A stretch of 28,770 nt of DNA from NCBI GenBank assembly GCA_038065435.1, contig JBBTQZ010000029.1, forward strand, positions 1 to 28,770, read 5' to 3'. Each line of letters begins with the position of its first letter. The stretch's first letter is position 1. The notes below the pieces were generated by a model. That model saw nothing but the letters and a program-made list of their open reading frames with translations. It did not search any database and was not told where the DNA came from. The position numbers and the translations under genes are program-made. Shown here in pieces: positions 2,585-23,930 of this stretch. The DNA is from Patescibacteria group bacterium. GTDB taxonomy: Bacteria; Patescibacteriota; Minisyncoccia; Phycocordibacterales; WO2-35-19.

Positions 2585-2974
2585 GTGCCTATACCATATC
2601 CAACCTCAATGGATGTCATGTATGTAGCATTTGACTTTAACAAGTCATTCCCAGCAGACTTCGTGAAGGAACTCAAAGAAAAGTTTCCGGAGTGGACTGA
2701 TCTTCATTTTTCTTTAGACAACAATAATCAAAACGTCTGGGAATTTCTAAGAATGTACCGAGACCGATTGTCAAAATTCAAAGCAAAACAAATTCTTAGT
2801 GCCACAAAGAATGGTAGCTTTGAAGAACTTGTTGACCGGGCCAGGCAAGCAGTAGAGATGCAAAAATATTTCGCCGATCTTAGACCCCGATTTTTTCCAG
2901 AAGAAGTTGAGGCGGAGAAGAAGAGACACAAGCAGGCGGATGAGGATGCAAAGGCTTACTATGGCTTCGAGTAG
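2585..2974 (+). CDS. Hypothetical protein, 129 aa
   Basis: Open frame lying between repeat R and terminator T; GTG start preceded by GAGAGG; no motif recognised. Confidence 0.7.
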   Translation: MPIPYPTSMDVMYVAFDFNKSFPADFVKELKEKFPEWTDLHFSLDNNNQNVWEFLRMYRDRLSKFKAKQILSATKNGSFEELVDRARQAVEMQKYFADLRPRFFPEEVEAEKKRHKQADEDAKAYYGFE

Positions 2975-3032
2975 TATCAATCCCTAACAATAATACCAGG
3001 GATCCGAACCAAATCTCTGTGAAGTACCTCTA

Positions 3033-3067
3033 ATCCCGCCCTCCAGCAAATGGACGGCGGGATTTTT
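3033..3067 (+). terminator. Intrinsic terminator T, copy 2
   Basis: Identical to 2412-2446. Confidence 0.88.
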
Positions 3068-3110
3068 GTTTGTTGTAAAAAAGAGATTTTTGGGTTAAAT
3101 TATATGTATT

Positions 3111-4502
3111 ATGCAAAGAATCTTTATAAAAGACCTGAAAGATCATGTGGGGCAAGAGGTGTCCGTATCGGGCTGGGTTAGCATTGTAAGAGATCAGGGC
3201 AAGATGGTTTTTTTTGATTTTCGCGACATGAGCGGTACCGTGCAGGGGGTAGTGCTTTCTGATAAAAAAGATTTGGTGGAAAGAGCAAAACCAATTCGAT
3301 CAGATTGGGTGGTAAGAGTAGAGGGTAAGGTCAATAAAAGACCCGATAAAATGGTGAACGAAAAAGTGCAAAATGGTGATATTGAACTAGAGATAACAAA
3401 CATTCAAGTTTTAAACGAATCTAAAACATCACCTTTTGACGTCCTTACGGACACATCGAACATAGATGAAGAGACACGTCTAAAATATAGATATATCGAT
3501 CTCAGAAGCGAGCGTATGCAGAAAAATATGCGGCTTAGAAGCGAGTGGGTAAACAAATGTAGAGGTTATTTACTTAGAAATAGCTTCACAGAAATAGAAA
3601 CGCCGATCCTGACCGAATCAACCCCCGAAGGAAGCAGAGACTTCGTGGTACCAAGTCGCCTAAATCCTGGTAAATTTTATGCCCTTCCCCAATCACCCCA
3701 ACAATACAAACAACTCCTCATGGTCGCCGGTTTTGAAAGATATTTCCAAATAGCTCGGGCAGTACGCGATGAGGATCTCCGAGCGGATAGAGGATTCGAA
3801 CATACTCAGATAGATATAGAAACTAGTTTTTTGAAACAAGACGAACTTTTAGATCTTCTTGAAGCAATGTTCATAGAAGTAGCAGAATCACTTGGACACA
3901 AGATCAAGCAAAAACCTTTTCCACGTATTACATACAAAGAAGCAATGCAAAAATACGGCGCAGACAAATTTGATATGCGCACCGAAGAAGAGAAGGGGGA
4001 TGGCAAAACTCTGGCATATGCATGGGTGGTAGATTTTCCATTTTTTGAAAAAACCGATCAAGGAGATTGGACCTTTACCCACAACCCATTTTCTATGCCA
4101 AAAGAAGAATGTTTAGAAGACCATTTGACAGGCAAGAACATAGAGAACATTATCACTCAGCAATACGACCTTGTATGCAATGGTTACGAATCAGCTGGAG
4201 GTAGTATAAGAGCTCATGATCCTAAAATCTTGGAAGCTACATATAAAATCATGGGCTACTCAGATGAAAAGATTCAGAAAAGTGTTGGGCACATGCTAGA
4301 AGCCTTAAAATATGGAGCGCCACCCCATGGGGGTATTGCCATAGGGGTGGAGAGAAATATAATGAACTTAGCAAATGAAGCTTATTTGCGCGAAGTACAA
4401 GCTTTTCCGATGACCCGCGGCGGTAAAACATCAGTGATGAACGCTCCCAGCGAACTTTCTCTAAAACAATTAAAAGAGCTGGGGATCAGTATTAAGAAAT
4501 GA
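3111..4502 (+). CDS. aspS: Aspartate--tRNA ligase, bacterial type, short (GAD insertion absent)
   Basis: OB-fold N-terminus (RDQG..FFDFRD), motif 1 EIETPIL, ALPQSPQQYKQLLM, motif 2 RDEDLRADR, motif 3 PPHGGIAIGVER. Confidence 0.95.
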   Translation: MQRIFIKDLKDHVGQEVSVSGWVSIVRDQGKMVFFDFRDMSGTVQGVVLSDKKDLVERAKPIRSDWVVRVEGKVNKRPDKMVNEKVQNGDIELEITNIQVLNESKTSPFDVLTDTSNIDEETRLKYRYIDLRSERMQKNMRLRSEWVNKCRGYLLRNSFTEIETPILTESTPEGSRDFVVPSRLNPGKFYALPQSPQQYKQLLMVAGFERYFQIARAVRDEDLRADRGFEHTQIDIETSFLKQDELLDLLEAMFIEVAESLGHKIKQKPFPRITYKEAMQKYGADKFDMRTEEEKGDGKTLAYAWVVDFPFFEKTDQGDWTFTHNPFSMPKEECLEDHLTGKNIENIITQQYDLVCNGYESAGGSIRAHDPKILEATYKIMGYSDEKIQKSVGHMLEALKYGAPPHGGIAIGVERNIMNLANEAYLREVQAFPMTRGGKTSVMNAPSELSLKQLKELGISIKK

Positions 4503-17780: not shown

Positions 17781-18704
17781 TTATCGGGAGGCATCGAATC
17801 CGGCAAAATTGCTGTCCGGATCGGTGGGATCAAATACCACTCCCTGAACAGTGATCCCGCCACCATCGGCAGTGACCGAAGCGTAGACGGGTCGAGAGCC
17901 GTCAAGCGAATTATTGGGCAACTCCACTACGATCCTCGATCCAATTTGGCGAAATTCCACCTTGAGGACTTCCATCCTCCCAACTTGCAACTGGTATAAA
18001 AATCCAGTGGCATATCCTAGAGTCCCTCCAAAATACAATTTTCCCTCATATGCTTGACGGGATGCCTTGATATGGGGGGTTTTTGCCTCCGGATCAAATC
18101 GGGGCGCGAAACTCAAGCTAACCTGTTGGTTCTCACTCGTACTACCAACCACAAAGTGGAGAGAGTCAAGATAAAACCATGGTCCAGGTTCGGTGCCGTT
18201 CACCAAGAGCAGGCGGTAACGTCCGTCCAACAAGTTAGAATATTGAGCAACCTGTTGACGGATGTTCTGACCGACTCCGAGACGAAACGGCTCGCCGGAC
18301 AGGGTGAGCCACTCGGTATCATCACTGCGAAGCGAATCCGGTTCCCAACGCTGAAGTGTGAGCCAAAGTGGGTTGTTCATACCACTTGCATCAAAGCTGA
18401 CAGGGCCGGGACAATTTGCCGTTCGAGTTGATACAGCGGAAACTGAGACAAGTGAGCCACTCGCGAAAAGATGATTATCTATCATCGCGAGAACACATTG
18501 TTCAGATCCGACGACGAGTTTGGCCAAGTTTGGTCCAGCCCCTTCTCCTGCCATCCCAATGTTGGCAAGAACGAAAATCAGAAACAAACGATTCATCGGT
18601 TTTACCCCTTTTTTGCTAACACACCCTCCCTCATTGGCGCGCGACATGAAAATGCAGGCGCTAAGAATTCCTAAAACAAGCAATACTAAGATTAGGAATA
18701 GCAT
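17781..18704 (-). CDS. Hypothetical secreted/membrane-anchored beta-rich protein, about 307 aa
   Basis: GAAAGGAGG SD upstream of ATG 18704; two hydrophobic N-terminal segments; no family recognised. Confidence 0.75.
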   Translation of the reverse strand: MLFLILVLLVLGILSACIFMSRANEGGCVSKKGVKPMNRLFLIFVLANIGMAGEGAGPNLAKLVVGSEQCVLAMIDNHLFASGSLVSVSAVSTRTANCPGPVSFDASGMNNPLWLTLQRWEPDSLRSDDTEWLTLSGEPFRLGVGQNIRQQVAQYSNLLDGRYRLLLVNGTEPGPWFYLDSLHFVVGSTSENQQVSLSFAPRFDPEAKTPHIKASRQAYEGKLYFGGTLGYATGFLYQLQVGRMEVLKVEFRQIGSRIVVELPNNSLDGSRPVYASVTADGGGITVQGVVFDPTDPDSNFAGFDASR

Positions 18705-18779
18705 CCTAATACCTCCTTTCAAGTTACAACCTTTGCAGGTTTCTGATATTAAGAATACAGATTAAACAAAAAATGTCAA

Positions 18780-18932
18780 GGAATTGAGGTTTTGTATTGT
18801 GGTTTGGCTCCAAATTTCTCGGGCCTGAACCAAATCGTAGTAAGGGTACCGCCAGGGACAGTCCCCGGTCCCAACTACCTCTGGATCGGAGAAGAACCAA
18901 CTTCTCCCATCTACACTCTCTGGACCAAGTAG
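18780..18932 (+). pseudogene. Orphan 3' fragment of a TIGR03437-like (Solibacter/Bryobacter-type) gene, copy A
   Basis: GIEVLYCGLAPNFSGLNQIVVRVPPGTVPGPNYLWIGEEPTSPIYTLWTK*; resembles the VLYAGLAPGFxGLYQINVRVP motif; in-frame stop at 18750 and no plausible start. Confidence 0.75.
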
Positions 18933-18948
18933 GATCTCCCACTTGCCC

Positions 18949-18981
18949 AAGCGGTCGCACCAACCAGTGCGACCGCTTTTT
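18949..18981 (+). terminator. Intrinsic terminator after fragment A
   Basis: 12-bp stem AAGCGGTCGCAC/GTGCGACCGCTT, loop CAACCA, T-tract. Confidence 0.88.
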
Positions 18982-18985
18982 CTTG

Positions 18986-19014
18986 TTGACAAAATAAGCA
19001 AAAAGATGTAAGCT
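18986..19014 (+). promoter_or_regulatory. sigma70-type promoter of the tyrS-like operon
   Basis: TTGACA, 17-nt spacer, TAAGCT; AAGGAGG SD before ATG 19079. Confidence 0.6.
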
Positions 19015-19078
19015 GGCACATTAACAGGAAATGGTTTTCTGTTAGAAACAGCACATTAACAACAGAAGGAGGTAAGTC

Positions 19079-20338
19079 ATGAAGAGGTTTGATCAGCAAT
19101 TCCTTGCCCGTGATTCGGAATCGTGGGTCGGAATGGAAGTCAACGAACTTGTCGGCTTCCTGTTGCCGAAATGCCAAGAGGTCATCACGACTGATCGGTT
19201 GCGGCAAAAGATATCCGAACATCCAACGCTAAAGGTGAAATTTGGAATTGATCCAACAGCGTCGGAAATCCACATCGGCCATGTGGTGCCAATCATGCTT
19301 TTGCGTCAGTTTGCAAAAGCTGGTCATCACATCGACTTTATCATTGGAGATTTCACCGCTCGGGTCGGCGATCCCACCGCGAGGAACACCGGTAGGGTTC
19401 CGTTGAGTCCGGAACAAATTGTGAAGAATATGGAAACATACACCAGCCAGATCGGGAAGTACATCGATTTGCGTATGCTTCACATTCACTACAACGCCAA
19501 ATGGTTAAATCCGATGACCTTGCAAGAAATTTTCGCTATCTTCCAACAAATTAATCTGTCGGAAGCCATGCAGCGTGAAGATTTTAGAGCGAGGATACGC
19601 AACGAGCAAGCGGTGTCGCTCGCAGAAGTCTGTTACGGAGTCTTGATGGGTATAGATTCGGCTCATCTCGGAACTCATGTCGAGATCGGTGGTATAGATC
19701 AATTGCTGAATTTTCAGCAATGCCGTAAGATCATGCGTCAGTCTGGTATGGACGAAGAGGTGATTCTGATGACGCCCATCTTGGAAGGAACGGGTGGTGA
19801 TGGGAAAAAGATGAGTAAGAGTTACGGCAATTATGTTGCCGTCAACGCGACTCATGAGGACAAATTCGGAAAGATTATGTCCATTCCCGATCGGCTAATC
19901 GGTCAGTACTTCCGGTGTTTCGCCGATGTTCACCAGCGAGAGTTGGGGGAACTTGACGCGTTCATCGGGGAGAATCCGATGGAAGCCAAGAAGCAACTCG
20001 CCACTCTCATTGTTGCTGTTGAAACGCAACACATTGAGAATGGCTTGGGAGAACGCGAATCCTTTGAGCGAAAATTCTCTCAAAAGAATATTCGCAACGA
20101 GGATTGCATTGAATTGACTGAAAACGCAACCACCACGATCTTGGATGCTCTAGTGAAAAGCAGTCAATTCAAGAGTAAAAGCGAACTTCGCCGACTATTC
20201 GAACAGCAAGGCGTACAAGCCATGAACGAAGACGGAGAGGTTGCGCTCTCTCCTGAAATCGTCGTTAGCCAAGTGCGCGGCGTTGTGCGAGTCGGCAAAC
20301 GCCGTTTCTTCAAGTTCGTTGTTTCGAAAGGAGATTGA
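19079..20338 (+). CDS. tyrS: Tyrosine--tRNA ligase paralogue, atypical
   Basis: KFGIDPT..HIGH, IGDFTA..GDP, GGIDQ, KMSKS, C-terminal S4-like domain (SKSELRRLFEQQGV...VGKRRF). Confidence 0.88.
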   Translation: MKRFDQQFLARDSESWVGMEVNELVGFLLPKCQEVITTDRLRQKISEHPTLKVKFGIDPTASEIHIGHVVPIMLLRQFAKAGHHIDFIIGDFTARVGDPTARNTGRVPLSPEQIVKNMETYTSQIGKYIDLRMLHIHYNAKWLNPMTLQEIFAIFQQINLSEAMQREDFRARIRNEQAVSLAEVCYGVLMGIDSAHLGTHVEIGGIDQLLNFQQCRKIMRQSGMDEEVILMTPILEGTGGDGKKMSKSYGNYVAVNATHEDKFGKIMSIPDRLIGQYFRCFADVHQRELGELDAFIGENPMEAKKQLATLIVAVETQHIENGLGERESFERKFSQKNIRNEDCIELTENATTTILDALVKSSQFKSKSELRRLFEQQGVQAMNEDGEVALSPEIVVSQVRGVVRVGKRRFFKFVVSKGD

Positions 20339-20973
20339 AGATGATACCAATAATCTCCGAGCTCAAACAACGCGGGCTAGTAACAAATGTTTTAGGTTCT
20401 ATCCCGCCAAAAATACGACCCGCGCTTGCCGTATGGGCGAGAAAAGAACCGAAGGACTCATTTTTCGCGTTTGTCGCTCTTTCAAAAGCCATAACAAACG
20501 AACCGCTTGCGGTGTTCGTTGATGATCTGTGTTCGCAGCTCGTTATGGAACGAACCCAAAACGAACAGGCGAAAATGAACGGGCGATATCGTGAGTTTTT
20601 CAAAGCTGCAGGTTGCATAGTAAAGTTCAGTAGTGAAATATATGCTAACGAGTTCTCTGCTGACGTTTTCCCATTTCTTATTGGATTGGGACGACATGTG
20701 CCTGTTAGTGAATTCAAACGCTGTCTCCCAGAAGATAAGAGACGAGATTTCAACAAGTTGACGCTTGATGAAATTCTGCACTTATTGCTGGAGCTTTCAC
20801 TGCTTGAACGGGTCGCAAAGGAGTGCAACCTTCTGCTGGTAGGCCACTTCAGCCAAGCAATTGTGGTATGCCATCGAAAAACTTCTCAAAATCCAATCTC
20901 GGCGATAGCGATCCCAAGATTGAATAGTAGAGAAGAAGTTGATGATTACAAGCAAAAAATCGCAATAACCTAA
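20335..20973 (+). CDS. Degenerate TyrRS catalytic-domain homologue, 212 aa, lacking HIGH and KMSKS
   Basis: IISELKQRGLV ~ TyrRS LLAELQWRGLV; FLIGLGRH ~ FLRDVGKH; ECNLLLVGHFSQ ~ EGCRLQIGGSDQ; 4-nt overlap with the tyrS stop. Confidence 0.65.
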   Translation: MKMIPIISELKQRGLVTNVLGSIPPKIRPALAVWARKEPKDSFFAFVALSKAITNEPLAVFVDDLCSQLVMERTQNEQAKMNGRYREFFKAAGCIVKFSSEIYANEFSADVFPFLIGLGRHVPVSEFKRCLPEDKRRDFNKLTLDEILHLLLELSLLERVAKECNLLLVGHFSQAIVVCHRKTSQNPISAIAIPRLNSREEVDDYKQKIAIT

Positions 20974-21809
20974 GGGGCATTTTCCATGAAAGAATCTGCC
21001 CCTTTTTCTTCTCCAAAAATCTTTGTGGCAGACAACGGAAATCGTTCATAAAAATATCGCAAAATTTTAAATTGGTTATCTGTGCAATTCTTCTTACAAT
21101 ATTTTTTGAAGTAAAAATAAAATTTTTTTAAATACTGATCTCGTTTTTCTAATTTAAGATTATCAATTAAAAATCCTCCTATTAAAAAACAGCTGTGTAT
21201 ATCTGTAAGAACAAAATCTTTTTTCATAAATGGATCAGCTGACCAATGCCATAAAAAACCAGCATTTTCTAACTTCTCTTCAAAAACAGAAGTGTAATGA
21301 TTTCCTTTTAAACCATAAAACATATCTTCTGATTTAATTTTCTTAAGAGAGTTGATTCGAAAAACCTTGAAACTATTTTTGTTTAGTCGTAGGACTTTTT
21401 TCACGCTGGCACCACACATTATTTTCAAACTTATCTTGAATTTGTTATCAGGAAAAGGGATACATGAAATATCAAAAAAATTCAAACGACTAAATCCTCT
21501 TATGATTTCTTTCTCATAAGACGAGGGGGTGAATAATTTTTTTGACAGCGTATCAGCAACAATCCAAAGATCAATATCACTTTTGTCTCCTGTTTTACGA
21601 AATTCTTCTAATGAACCAGAGCGCAAACATACAGCGAGTGATCCTGTAAGAAATAAAGAATATTGTTTTTTAAAAAGAGAGTCGCACGATAGCGCGATGG
21701 CTCTAATTGTTTTTGTCAATGGCTTTGATAATTGCGCAACATTCTCTAAATTAATGAGATTGTCTGTATTTTCCAAATTTTTCAGAGGGTCATTTTTAAT
21801 TATGCCCAT
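20970..21809 (-). CDS. Pol-beta superfamily nucleotidyltransferase
   Basis: LFLTGSLA...KSDIDLWIV (hGS...DhDh) motif. Confidence 0.7.
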   Translation of the reverse strand: MGIIKNDPLKNLENTDNLINLENVAQLSKPLTKTIRAIALSCDSLFKKQYSLFLTGSLAVCLRSGSLEEFRKTGDKSDIDLWIVADTLSKKLFTPSSYEKEIIRGFSRLNFFDISCIPFPDNKFKISLKIMCGASVKKVLRLNKNSFKVFRINSLKKIKSEDMFYGLKGNHYTSVFEEKLENAGFLWHWSADPFMKKDFVLTDIHSCFLIGGFLIDNLKLEKRDQYLKKFYFYFKKYCKKNCTDNQFKILRYFYERFPLSATKIFGEEKGADSFMENAP

Positions 21810-22846
21810 ATTTTTGATACTAAATTATAGGCTTCACCGTCTTCCATTGGGTAGGGAGCAGATTTCATGTAATAAGCACACGCCCCTTTTATAACTCCGC
21901 CATGCTTCTTATCCTTCTCGGCTTTTGCGATTCGTATTAAATCAATAATTGAACCAGCGCTGTTTGGTTTATCGTCACTCTCAAGCTGAATTGAAATTTT
22001 TACTTTTGAGCCAGCAAACACTTCTGCTTCCATGTCAAACAAGGCTTTTTTAAACGCTCCTTTTGTCGGATCATAATGGTGACCGATATGATTCGGCACT
22101 CCTTCGGATATGAATAAACTTAAGGACTTATATTTAGATATAAGTTTAGTCTGTGCTCGATATATAAAATTTGCAAAATCCGTATTCCCTCCTATATTTA
22201 TCTGTGAGGACTTAATAATTTTCGCACCCCTATCTTTTAGCATGTTGAGAACCGACCGATGGAGCATTGTTGAACCAACCTGACTTTTAATATCATCACC
22301 AATCAATGGAAGTTTTTGCTTCTCAAATTGTTGTGCAATATCGGATTTTTGAGCAAATATAGTTGGTATACAGTTTACAAACGCACATTTAGCTTTTAGT
22401 GCCGATAAACCATAAAATTCTGTCGCCTCGATTGAACCAGTCGGAAGAAGATTTATTAAAATATCAACTTTATACTTTTTTAAAACATTGGGAACATCAA
22501 CTACTTTTTCTTTAGATTCCTTAACAAATTTTTGTAAATGTTCCGGGTTACCATCAAGCGTAGGTCCGCGCAAAACAGGGGCTTTATTCAATACTTTCAA
22601 ATTAGCTATACGATAAAAATTGTTTGGAGACTCGTAAATAGCTTCATCGATAGTTTTACCTACTTTTCTATCTGAAATATCAAACGCTACTACTATTTCT
22701 ATATCATTTAACGAATATTCGCCTAGTATAGGAAACAATAATCCCTCCGTTGTTTTGCCTTGTTGATAATAAGTAAGACCTTCAATTAAGCTACCCGCAC
22801 AATTACCAAGACCAACAATTGCGACATTAATTTTTCTTTGTTTCAT
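21800..22846 (-). CDS. ino1: myo-inositol-1-phosphate synthase (bacterial/archaeal type)
   Basis: VAIVGLGNCA, GDDIKSQVG, NIGGNTDF, DKPNSAG, YMKS. Confidence 0.9.
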   Translation of the reverse strand: MKQRKINVAIVGLGNCAGSLIEGLTYYQQGKTTEGLLFPILGEYSLNDIEIVVAFDISDRKVGKTIDEAIYESPNNFYRIANLKVLNKAPVLRGPTLDGNPEHLQKFVKESKEKVVDVPNVLKKYKVDILINLLPTGSIEATEFYGLSALKAKCAFVNCIPTIFAQKSDIAQQFEKQKLPLIGDDIKSQVGSTMLHRSVLNMLKDRGAKIIKSSQINIGGNTDFANFIYRAQTKLISKYKSLSLFISEGVPNHIGHHYDPTKGAFKKALFDMEAEVFAGSKVKISIQLESDDKPNSAGSIIDLIRIAKAEKDKKHGGVIKGACAYYMKSAPYPMEDGEAYNLVSKIWA

Positions 22847-23598
22847 ATAACCTCTTTAATTAGTTTATTAAATTGTTTCCACTCAATTTTGCTTGAGTGT
22901 CCTCCATCGATAATATGCCGTTTCGAATTTTGATGTTCATCTTCAAGAGCTTTAGACATAGCGACAGGAGTTACTTTATCTGCCTTACCACAAAAAATCG
23001 TGTGTTTGATATTTTGATTTATAAATTTTTTATCCATATCAGGAATAATAATTTTCCCTTTTATTTGACTAAAAAACTTCTTTTTGTTCTTAAATCGATA
23101 AGAAAAAGGATATGCAAAAGACATAATTTCTGATGTCTCGTCGGCAATTTGCAAGTTGGATTCATCAACTTTATAAGCAATCATACCCCAAAGTGGAGAT
23201 ATAAAAATAGATTTATTGATTTTAGGAAAAATAAATTTTTTTAATGATAAGCCGGCAATCAATCCACCAAAACTCGTGGCGAAAATAATTATTTCTTTAT
23301 GTTTTACTTTTTCTGTTTTATGCGGGCCGTATTGGATAATTCTTTCATTTAAAAATTGATACCAAAATTTTACATCCTGAACAGCGTTTTCTATAGAAAA
23401 TTTCCCATGGCTATCGAATGTGCCACTATACATTAAAGTCAAAACATTATATTGCTCTTTATTTAAAAAATCTATAAATTCGGAACGTCCAGGATATTTG
23501 GGAAATCCTGGCAAAAACAAAATAGTGCCTTTTATCTCTTTCGTTGTGTTGGCCGGATACCAAATCGCCCTTTTGTTTTCTTTCAATTGTGTAAACAT
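22843..23598 (-). CDS. Alpha/beta hydrolase
   Basis: LFLPGFP oxyanion loop, ATSFGG nucleophile elbow, GKAD.VTP Asp, GGHS His. Confidence 0.85.
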   Translation of the reverse strand: MFTQLKENKRAIWYPANTTKEIKGTILFLPGFPKYPGRSEFIDFLNKEQYNVLTLMYSGTFDSHGKFSIENAVQDVKFWYQFLNERIIQYGPHKTEKVKHKEIIIFATSFGGLIAGLSLKKFIFPKINKSIFISPLWGMIAYKVDESNLQIADETSEIMSFAYPFSYRFKNKKKFFSQIKGKIIIPDMDKKFINQNIKHTIFCGKADKVTPVAMSKALEDEHQNSKRHIIDGGHSSKIEWKQFNKLIKEVI

Positions 23599-23599
23599 A

Positions 23600-23779
23600 T
23601 TATTTTTTATTTTGTAATAATTTTAAAATTTCCTCTTTTACAAAAAATTTCTTTCCTTTTGGATTAAGTCGACGAGATTTTATAAGACCTTGTTTTTCCC
23701 AGCGATAAATAGTAATGGCTCTAACATTAAAAAATTTAGCTATTTCATTTGTGGTTAGATAGGGGTTGTTATTTTCCAT
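23600..23779 (-). CDS. Small MerR/excisionase-like HTH protein, 59 aa
   Basis: YLTTNEIAKFFNVRAITIYRWEKQGLIKSRR; start placed at ATG 23779 (the track extends it to 23842). Confidence 0.85.
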   Translation of the reverse strand: MENNNPYLTTNEIAKFFNVRAITIYRWEKQGLIKSRRLNPKGKKFFVKEEILKLLQNKK

Positions 23780-23930
23780 ACATTTGGTATCATTTAATAA
23801 CATTGATATACTTATAATAACATGGCTATAAATCTTATGCAATATGTTTTAGCGTAACCCTCACGCTCCCCCAACCTTCTTGTTTCAAGCCATTTTTTAC
23901 GGAGCCAATTTTAAATACTTCTGGAACCAG

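Follow-up and report, generated by a model that had tools for sequence, protein, structure and literature searches.

A gene for tyrosyl-tRNA synthetase (TyrRS) and a short open reading frame (ORF) follow each other on positions 1 to 28,770 of contig JBBTQZ010000029.1 from a Patescibacteria group bacterium (this whole stretch of 28,770 nucleotides is called the window below). In this TyrRS, methionine takes the place of a glutamine of the tyrosine pocket, and we refer to it as the Met type. Our results indicate that the Met-type TyrRS is a horizontally acquired accessory second copy in this genome and not the housekeeping enzyme. The short ORF, referred to as the partner, is best explained by its predicted fold as a degenerate TyrRS catalytic domain and the founder of an unannotated family, from which the ATP motifs and the tRNA-binding domain have gone. 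Both genes lie on a mobile cassette of foreign composition. Its recurrence beside nucleotide-handling enzymes in distant bacteria suggests an unrecognised small-molecule pathway or resistance module.

The 419 amino acid (aa) TyrRS reached 256 bits against the tyrS equivalog model TIGR00234, whose cut-off is 113.8, and aligned to model positions 3-404 of 406; PF00579 was matched with an E value of 1.4e-56. Its closest solved relatives were type-2 bacterial enzymes, namely 6BQY (E 4.9e-59) and T. thermophilus 1H3E. Both ATP signatures were intact (HIGH at residues 65-68, KMSKS at 244-248), as an initial annotation made from the sequence had stated. The S4 domain named in the same annotation gave no separate match in the Pfam search of this protein, and only the full-length alignment to TIGR00234 suggests a C-terminal domain.

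The pocket helix reads E-V-C-Y-G-V-L-M-G-I-D-S, compared with Y-P-x-x-Q-[GA]-x-D-S in canonical enzymes. Met190 stands at the position of Gln173 of the B. stearothermophilus enzyme, a residue that binds the alpha-amino group of tyrosine. Gln was found there in the alignments with 6BQY and 1H3E, and in 11 of 11 canonical TyrRS compared (all 11 also have Pro at position 187), which bears out the substitution first noticed in the initial annotation. Tyr186 and Asp193, at the positions of Tyr169 and Asp176 of the B. stearothermophilus enzyme, were retained, and Gly187 replaces the preceding Pro. The protein thus departs from the canonical tyrosine-pocket residue set by Gln173 to Met190 and Pro to Gly187. 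A change of Tyr34 to Lys was considered as a second pocket change and rejected, because the canonical type-2 enzymes 6BQY and 1H3E also carry Lys.

The same pocket was found in a large group of sequences. Among the 120 nearest homologues of the window TyrRS (52-95% identity), 117 have Y-G-x-x-M, 116 keep H-x-G-H and 119 keep K-M-S/G-K-S. Across the Met-type sequences (the window protein and 116 others), position 187 is Gly in 97% and position 190 is Met in 100%. In the tree, the Met-type clade was monophyletic with a long stem (support 100/100). The Met type is rare: the other 400 sampled genomes of the phylum contained no such TyrRS (best identity 40%) and no partner; these samples may include one unpublished genome (G154), which is counted only among the 400 negatives.

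A separate housekeeping tyrS was found on another contig of this genome (C34, L001:1423-2685). It scored 304 bits, has the canonical L-L-Q-A-Y-D-S, and is 30% identical to the Met-type TyrRS. With a canonical tyrS elsewhere and the pair on a mobile foreign cassette, the earlier proposal that the pair does something other than housekeeping was supported in this genome. At the KMSKS position, the canonical enzyme of C34 reads K-I-G-K-S, which resembles K-F-G-K-T of type-1 enzymes. Two tyrS genes were present in four genomes (G000, G401, G402, G403), and the extra copy lies inside the conserved cluster. Baia soyae, Paenactinomyces guangxiensis and one Parcubacteria metagenome-assembled genome (MAG) each carry the pair plus a canonical TyrRS.

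The Met type may also be the only TyrRS of a genome. In G405, G451 and G452, which are related genomes of 2.7-3.5 Mb from another phylum-level lineage, the sole TIGR00234 match in a six-frame search was a Met-type gene, about 53% identical to the window TyrRS. Their relatives G450 and G453 had one canonical TyrRS each. The same search detected TyrRS in 14 of 14 control genomes, archaea included. The partner was not found in G405, G451 or G452. Since the ATP motifs are kept and the Met type is the only TyrRS detected in these three partner-less genomes, it is, on this indirect evidence, almost certainly a true TyrRS, and it very probably charges tRNA(Tyr) with tyrosine. Met190 alone therefore implies no new substrate, which weakens the idea in the initial annotation of a non-tyrosine or hydroxy-acid substrate. 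In the G405 lineage, a gene of the MbnB/TglH/ChrH family (DUF692) and a 218-aa ORF follow the Met-type gene (L020 3357-4907). Enzymes of this kind act in peptide-derived natural-product pathways.

The partner gene directly follows the TyrRS gene. The TGA stop of TyrRS (20336-20338) lies 3 nt ahead of the partner ATG at 20341, which is a likelier start than TTG at 20335, and a Shine-Dalgarno sequence, AAGGAG, is present at 20328. Judged from this layout, the two genes are translationally coupled. At the sequence level, the partner had no match in Pfam (E ≤ 0.1) or NCBIfam, and BLASTP found no similarity to either of the two TyrRS of the genome. A profile search of the partner family against PDB sequences gave noise only (E 0.18), and a protein-atlas feature search had a top score of 0.79 (PsiA clusters), which was below the noise level and discarded. 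The comparison with TyrRS profiles by hhalign was not significant (probability 6%); its sole segment was co-linear and paired residues 91-149 with TyrRS 133-188, that is, the connective peptide 1 (CP1)/dimer-interface region. The initial annotation had pointed to this same region. Because there was no significant sequence match, the homology of the partner to TyrRS rests on its predicted fold.

The AlphaFold2 model of the partner, built with 23 homologues, was confident (predicted local distance difference test score, pLDDT, 91.8; predicted template-modelling score 0.88). The top 50 Foldseek matches in PDB were all TyrRS (E about 3e-8, TM about 0.7). In exhaustive VIA-align comparisons, TyrRS structures reached Z scores of 17.6, 17.0 and 16.2 over 186-204 of the 210 residues with a root-mean-square deviation of about 3 Å, compared with 13-14 for TrpRS and 14.3 down to 9 for cyclodipeptide synthases (CDPSs). 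In the AlphaFold Database clusters, the top two matches were unnamed members of the partner family and TyrRS came next. HIGH and KMSKS are missing from the sequence, and the chain ends after the Rossmann fold. The partner thus has a Rossmann fold like that of class-Ic aminoacyl-tRNA synthetases (aaRSs), with matches to TyrRS, TrpRS and CDPS, and no ATP motifs. These results supported the initial description of the second ORF as TyrRS-like and devoid of HIGH, KMSKS and an anticodon domain.

The partner family is large. A hidden Markov model (HMM) search of 1.84 billion cluster representatives returned 108 clusters at 50% identity, 84 of them at E ≤ 1e-10. A pattern scan of the genome collection gave three partner loci only; the scan requires exact peptide patterns and the family is much larger by HMM. 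Family members share the motifs W-A-R..P-K, V-D-D, R...E-Q, F-S-S, L-P..K-R, E..H...E and G.F-S, and a conserved polar pocket is formed by W32, R34, K38, D61/D62, R71, H147 and E151. H147 and E151 were invariant in 23 close homologues and were the consensus (at least 50%) among 60 diverse members. In the register of the non-significant hhalign segment, H147, E151 and L154 would fall at the positions of TyrRS Tyr169, Gln173 and Asp176, and W32-A-R-x-x-P-K would replace the HIGH-bearing strand-loop.

To place the pair in its genomic context, we compared the cassette with related loci. The window corresponds to contig C29 of a genome of 601 kb in 64 contigs (92.7% complete), which is of the Patescibacteria/Candidate Phyla Radiation (CPR) type. 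By blastn, the cassette was 90.2% identical to the metagenome contigs L004-L007 across 4860 bp. It is bounded by a phage-type integrase and an rve transposase in L004 and L005, the transposase side is visible in L006 and L007, and the flanks in the window are unlike those in L004-L007. The cassette contains the TyrRS, the partner, a convergent 279-aa protein, a gene resembling myo-inositol-phosphate synthase (MIPS), an alpha/beta hydrolase and a small helix-turn-helix (HTH) ORF. The GC content of the plus-strand pair (0.481 for TyrRS, 0.44 for the partner; 0.407 for the whole window) differs from that of the minus-strand operon of nucleotidyltransferase, MIPS-like gene and hydrolase (0.31-0.35). 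These two compositional halves suggest that the cassette was assembled from parts of different origin. A diverged cassette in L008 (about 70% DNA identity) has the same gene order, and in L015, a Saccharibacteria MAG also at about 70% DNA identity, everything from the partner rightwards is kept and TyrRS is absent.

Compared with the 90%-identical L004 cassette, the ratio of nonsynonymous to synonymous substitution rates (dN/dS) was 0.10 for TyrRS, 0.18 for the partner, 0.24 for the nucleotidyltransferase-like gene and 0.11 for the MIPS-like gene. By this estimate, the partner gene is under purifying selection. A tRNA scan of the window found no tRNA. Rfam searches (gathering threshold over the window; E ≤ 1 over 18650-19150) found no T-box or other leader and returned one spurious miRNA match, and PADLOC had zero matches among the five window proteins tested. 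Directly left of the cassette border at 18986, a GC-rich stretch (18797-18985) holds only short ORFs and has no Rfam match. It ends in a strong terminator-like hairpin at 18949-18978 on the plus strand, with a 12-bp stem, 8 GC pairs and a T-run. This stretch might represent a small RNA, or else the last part of a unit lying upstream.

The linkage of the two genes was found across lineages. TyrRS and partner are adjacent or translationally coupled in L004-L009, L013 and L018, and divergent in L012 and L016, so the conservation of the partner beside the Met-type TyrRS, on which the initial annotation had made its proposal depend, extends across phyla. The tightest link of the partner is with the adjacent Pol-beta-type nucleotidyltransferase. 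Fusions of the partner to this nucleotidyltransferase-like protein exist in both orders (P0173, P0235, P0237, P0248, P0249), and P0218 joins the partner to a thymidylate-kinase-like domain.

Two Thermoactinomycetaceae, Paenactinomyces guangxiensis and Baia soyae, carry a partner of 41-44% identity (hhalign probability 100%) that is divergent from the Met-type TyrRS. Both loci continue with a gene homologous to that of the 279-aa protein and with a NUDIX-EPSP-synthase fusion, to which Baia adds an NAD-dependent epimerase. Baia soyae (G401) also has a second, degraded copy of the divergent pair at C1:171434-171969 (L039, L054), of which there remain an N-terminal piece of TyrRS, interrupted by an internal TAG, and 47 residues of the partner. 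The Met-type gene of Croceifilum is near-identical to that of Baia on the tree; the partner is lost and the NUDIX neighbour is kept. Beside this Croceifilum TyrRS, a 391-aa ORF (L057, G406, 2885-4060) is a candidate of the PIWI/Argonaute type, judged from its translation only.

The partner that is coupled to TyrRS in the Parcubacteria loci L013 and L018 has 187-188 aa (hhalign probability 95%). The surroundings of these loci include SAM_HAT_N, an S51 peptidase, an ADK-like kinase and an ABC exporter, with NUDIX, methyltransferase, aminotransferase and ThiF genes upstream. In L059, an S66 peptidase, NUDIX-EPSPS, the nucleotidyltransferase-partner fusion (P0173) and the Met-type TyrRS lie on one strand. 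The P0235 contig carries the partner-nucleotidyltransferase fusion, a GCS2 ligase, an enolase-superfamily protein, GATase, TyrRS and an EamA exporter. These arrangements fit an accessory, horizontally mobile system with a constant core of Met-type TyrRS, pseudo-TyrRS and nucleotidyltransferase-like protein, around which scaffold enzymes, hydrolases and exporters vary by lineage.

The possible association of the two proteins was modelled with ESMFold2. The TyrRS-partner complex had a median score of 0.76 over three runs (0.76, 0.76, 0.78), and the best of three controls scored 0.00; of 80 solved complexes 58 attain this mark, as do 2 of 110 mismatched pairs. Between runs, at least 95% of contacts agreed, and the partner pLDDT was at least 86. 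In the model, TyrRS 140-188 meets partner 107-150, and this interface is the canonical dimer surface of TyrRS. The partner is thus predicted to retain a TyrRS-like dimer surface, a score of this kind being no proof of binding. As TyrRS homodimers have been solved, the score may reflect memory of that interface. The translational coupling fits a complex, whereas the separability of the partner and the Met-type TyrRS argues against an obligate one. The heterodimer put forward in the initial annotation was therefore reproduced in silico, on the normal TyrRS dimer surface, with a score that may mirror the solved homodimers.

The minus-strand neighbours in the cassette are of biosynthesis type (Table 1). 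In the family alignment of the 279-aa protein and the fused domains (A5), G56, D78, D80 and R151 were invariant, and 2 of 11 family members had a weak PF01909 match. The AlphaFold2 model of this protein was of moderate confidence (pLDDT 78.5). Foldseek gave weak matches to the Pol-beta superfamily (E 0.02; cGAS, CdnE, CCA-adding enzymes), and VIA-align gave ANT(4') (Z 8.3), 3C18 (Z 7.4) and Tam41 (Z 7.2), followed by ANT(4')-IIb, AAD(9), ANT(6) and LinB. The best VIA-align matches are small-molecule O-nucleotidyltransferases, and we treat the protein as a putative nucleotidyltransferase of the Pol-beta fold. The 348-aa protein belongs by sequence to the MIPS fold family (PF01658, E 7.7e-17, 61.9 bits against a cut-off of 27). 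It is predicted to be MIPS-like and does not reach the equivalog level, its best NCBIfam match (mycothiol_INO1, TIGR03450) having 268 bits, below the cut-off of 638. The MIPS-like gene is conserved in the cassette in L004-L008 and L015, and L015 has a homologue of the hydrolase at the same position. The HTH and hydrolase ORFs of the window are separated by a stop. In L004-L006 (L004:5717-6772), one 351-aa product with HTH_17/MerR matches is found where the window has the two ORFs, which represents a fusion/split difference or a frameshift.

Table 1. Positions of the cassette and its genes in the window.
Feature	Position	Strand	Remarks
Mobile cassette, five/six genes	18986..23843	.	Shared with metagenome contigs L004-L007 (90% identical DNA)
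Met-type TyrRS, 419 aa (second copy in the genome)	19079..20338	+	TIGR00234, PF00579
Pseudo-TyrRS partner, 210 aa	20341..20973	+	Predicted TyrRS catalytic-domain fold without HIGH, KMSKS and C-terminal domain
Pol-beta-fold nucleotidyltransferase-like protein, 279 aa	20970..21809	-	Convergent with partner; G-S...D-x-D
Myo-inositol-phosphate-synthase-like enzyme, 348 aa	21800..22846	-	PF01658, TIGR03450
Alpha/beta-hydrolase-like protein, 251 aa	22843..23598	-	Weak Hydrolase_4 and Abhydrolase_1 matches, below cut-off
Small HTH (excisionase/MerR-like) ORF, 59 aa	23600..23779	-	Heads minus-strand operon; from translation

The reading that we tentatively prefer, at somewhat short of an even chance, is a cassette for a specialised metabolite, in which the TyrRS is auxiliary or resistant. 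The initial annotation had proposed a specialised-metabolite or inhibitor-resistance module; the mobile cassette and the biosynthesis-type neighbours agree with it, and the product is putative. We build this reading on what was observed above: the folds and motifs, the status of the TyrRS as a second copy, the mobility, the conserved linkage with its fusions, and purifying selection. The existence of a small-molecule product, its relation to tyrosine and the physical binding of the proteins are inferred. The cassette would make a tyrosine- or tyrosyl-adenylate-like conjugate of a nucleotide or cyclitol. The pseudo-TyrRS, acting with the nucleotidyltransferase and probably docked on the Met-type TyrRS, would be the subunit that handles tyrosine or the aminoacyl group. 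The Met-type TyrRS may supply activated tyrosine, or be a product-insensitive copy of the target, or both. The variable genes are MIPS-like here; elsewhere they are a NUDIX-EPSP-synthase fusion, a SAM-hydrolase-like enzyme, kinases and an aminotransferase, with a hydrolase and exporters alongside. By analogy, these are the kinds of genes that may build nucleoside or cyclitol scaffolds, as in known antibiotic pathways. In aristeromycin, the five-membered cyclitol is the product of the MIPS orthologue Ari2 (PMC9092360), and NikO/PolA of the EPSPS family make 3'-enolpyruvyl-UMP for nikkomycin and polyoxin (PMC5365060). These precedents are analogies, not tests. The double role of the TyrRS would resemble that of SbzA, an extra IleRS copy that is a resistance protein and an aminoacyl transferase at once (PMC12945691).

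Several points weigh against this reading. The cassette has no known product, transporter specificity or enzyme activity, and it is without a canonical natural-product enzyme (nonribosomal peptide synthetase (NRPS), polyketide synthase (PKS) or ATP-grasp ligase). An episymbiont-type genome of 0.6 Mb would be an unusual antibiotic producer. The homology of the partner to TyrRS is not significant at the sequence level (hhalign 6%), the fold match of the nucleotidyltransferase-like protein is marginal (Z 8.3; Foldseek E 0.02), and the complex score may be memory of solved homodimers. The Met-type TyrRS also occurs without the partner in Croceifilum, in Zambryskibacteria, where it stands alone in a housekeeping-like context, and in the three sole-copy genomes. 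Conversely, a Saccharibacteria MAG has the partner with a Q-type (canonical) TyrRS only. A strict two-subunit enzyme is therefore not required.

In a more specific version, the same pair could be a split enzyme, in which a Met-type TyrRS/pseudo-TyrRS heterodimer is a tRNA-dependent aminoacyl transferase working across subunits; we consider this unlikely, but well worth weighing. The binding of tRNA by TyrRS spans the subunits, so that the body of tRNA(Tyr) would rest on the full-length chain and the Tyr-charged acceptor end would enter the remodelled pocket of the partner. A His/Glu pair in this pocket, corresponding in position to TyrRS Tyr169/Gln173 and to CDPS Tyr178/Glu182, would then pass tyrosine on to an acceptor. 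This acceptor, a nucleotide or cyclitol, would come from the nucleotidyltransferase, fused or adjacent, and the MIPS-like enzyme. Consistent with this are the heterodimer predicted on the canonical dimer surface (0.76 versus 0.00 for the control), the translational coupling, the absence of a tRNA-binding domain from the partner itself, the partner-nucleotidyltransferase fusions, and the co-linear alignment of the conserved H147/E151 with TyrRS Tyr186/Met190. In CDPS, Tyr178 and Glu182 are essential and position the aminoacyl moiety (PMC3105412), and with SbzA there is an earlier example of transfer from aminoacyl-tRNA by an aaRS copy (PMC12945691). However, the residue mapping is based on the non-significant hhalign segment and not on superposed structures, and in the alignments A1 and A3 no nucleophile is conserved where CDPSs have their serine. 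The complex model, which may be memory of TyrRS homodimers, consists of two proteins without tRNA, and one genome carries the partner with a canonical TyrRS only. If instead the TyrRS is a back-up enzyme for stress or selectivity (TyrZ-like, or an antibiotic-insensitive second copy) against an external inhibitor or toxic tyrosine analogue, the pseudo-TyrRS would be a regulator or decoy and the minus-strand operon an unrelated neighbour. The second copy beside a canonical tyrS, the sole-copy genomes (G405, G451, G452), the partner-less Met types in housekeeping-like contexts, the different GC content of the cassette halves (0.44-0.48 versus 0.31-0.35) and a MarR gene upstream in one relative, as for tyrZ (PMC9437257), would all suit this explanation. 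We nevertheless find it improbable. The partner-nucleotidyltransferase fusions and the recurrence of nucleotide-handling enzymes, hydrolases and exporters in unrelated lineages point to one system, the Saccharibacteria locus keeps partner, nucleotidyltransferase, MIPS-like gene and hydrolase without the TyrRS, and no T-box leader was found by Rfam in the window.

A conflict system directed at tRNA or nucleotides (anti-phage defence or toxin-antitoxin-like) is a distinctly remote prospect. The ends of tRNAs would then be modified by the nucleotidyltransferase, or a signalling nucleotide would be its product, and sensing or protection of tRNA(Tyr) would fall to the TyrRS-like proteins. In favour of this, the mobile cassette adjoins an integrase and a transposase, and the weak Foldseek matches of the nucleotidyltransferase model are CD-NTases, cGAS and CCA-adding enzymes, with Hailong HalB and MNT antitoxins among its VIA-align matches. 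Moreover, the NUDIX domain of a related cluster matches a PADLOC candidate model (E 8.9e-9), and the Met-type gene of Croceifilum lies beside the Argonaute-like candidate read from translation only. On the other hand, PADLOC matched 0 of 5 window proteins tested, the best fold matches of the nucleotidyltransferase are small-molecule O-nucleotidyltransferases, and metabolic accessory genes (MIPS-like, EPSPS, aminotransferase, methyltransferase) with exporters are atypical of defence. Finally, the 210-aa ORF might be a functionless, decaying tyrS duplicate whose position is accidental, as it has lost all aaRS signature motifs and has no detectable sequence similarity to TyrRS. This is scarcely tenable, and we judge it already refuted because of the conservation data: dN/dS relative to the 90%-identical cassette is 0.18, motifs are shared within a family of 84 clusters at E ≤ 1e-10, the fold is predicted with confidence, the domain is fused to others, and the gene is kept in different phyla and orientations.

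A specialised-metabolite cassette, if this reading is true, would be a new candidate gene-cluster family, compact and mobile, made up of TyrRS, pseudo-TyrRS, nucleotidyltransferase and scaffold enzymes. The clusters are not of NRPS or PKS type, and we expect that standard genome-mining tools may well miss them. A review of duplicated aaRSs lists for TyrRS only TyrZ and fused pseudo-dimers (PMC9437257). Limited searches of the open-access literature gave no description of the Met-type clade, the partner family or the cluster, and an earlier description elsewhere is possible. Known aaRS-derived proteins include cyclodipeptide synthases, HisZ, MshC and SbzA; a widespread, unannotated pseudo-TyrRS family of at least 108 clusters would join them. 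The Met type would be a defined TyrRS clade with Met in place of the alpha-amino-binding Gln that apparently still sustains translation, which is relevant to the design of TyrRS inhibitors and to engineered TyrRS/tRNA pairs. Transfer across subunits, if true, would amount to a tRNA-dependent path leading to compounds of the aminoacyl-nucleotide type. This path would differ from CDPS, Fem/PacB-type transferases and SbzA, and even ultra-small CPR genomes would have it. The findings also bear on the use of accessory DNA by CPR episymbionts with 0.6-Mb genomes. As the same core exists in the culture-collection strains Baia soyae DSM 46831 and Paenactinomyces guangxiensis CGMCC 4.7156, these proposals are directly testable.

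Among known systems, self-resistance aaRSs of the SbzA type are likewise extra full-length synthetases in a biosynthesis-type cluster with the housekeeping copy elsewhere. Other self-resistance copies in biosynthetic clusters are MupM, AgnB2 and AbmK. SbzA, which acts in SB-203208 synthesis, keeps the aaRS architecture and transfers the amino acid from aminoacyl-tRNA (PMC12945691). In contrast, the cassette has a truncated synthetase-like partner and a nucleotidyltransferase-like protein, neither of which is known from those systems. No natural case of TyrRS self-resistance was found in limited searches of the open-access literature. The double-length TyrRS of Leishmania and trypanosomes pairs an active and an inactivated unit through the dimer architecture, as proposed here (PMC9437257), and 3P0H was among the fold matches of the partner (Z 14.4, VIA-align). 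Here, however, there are two genes with a stop between them and not one polypeptide, and they lie in a biosynthesis-type cluster instead of serving housekeeping. The inactive copy of the Leishmania TyrRS keeps a working anticodon-binding domain, whereas the inactive copy here is without one and has its own conserved polar pocket.

The partner resembles CDPSs as a stand-alone class-Ic aaRS Rossmann fold of about 200-250 aa without ATP motifs or a tRNA-binding domain, and in the acidic residue at the TyrRS Gln position (E151 here, E182 in AlbC; PMC3105412). The identification of the partner as a CDPS was nevertheless rejected, because it has no CDPS Pfam match and no conserved catalytic serine nucleophile after the first strand, and is structurally closer to TyrRS (Z 16-17.6). 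It is also predicted to keep the CP1 dimer surface, which is absent in CDPSs. B. subtilis TyrZ, a more selective type-2 TyrRS, is similar in being a second TyrRS of its genome, and a MarR-type regulator is found nearby in one relative of the cassette. TyrZ has a T-box leader and no described pseudo-TyrRS partner; the cassette has no T-box. In mycothiol synthesis, the CysRS-like aaRS paralogue MshC works in a pathway that starts with the inositol-phosphate synthase Ino1. The best NCBIfam match of the MIPS-like gene is mycothiol_INO1, although far below the cut-off (268 versus 638). The cassette differs from the mycothiol pathway in that no MshA, MshB or MshD homologues were seen in it, and in contrast to MshC, the synthetase here keeps its tRNA-binding region.

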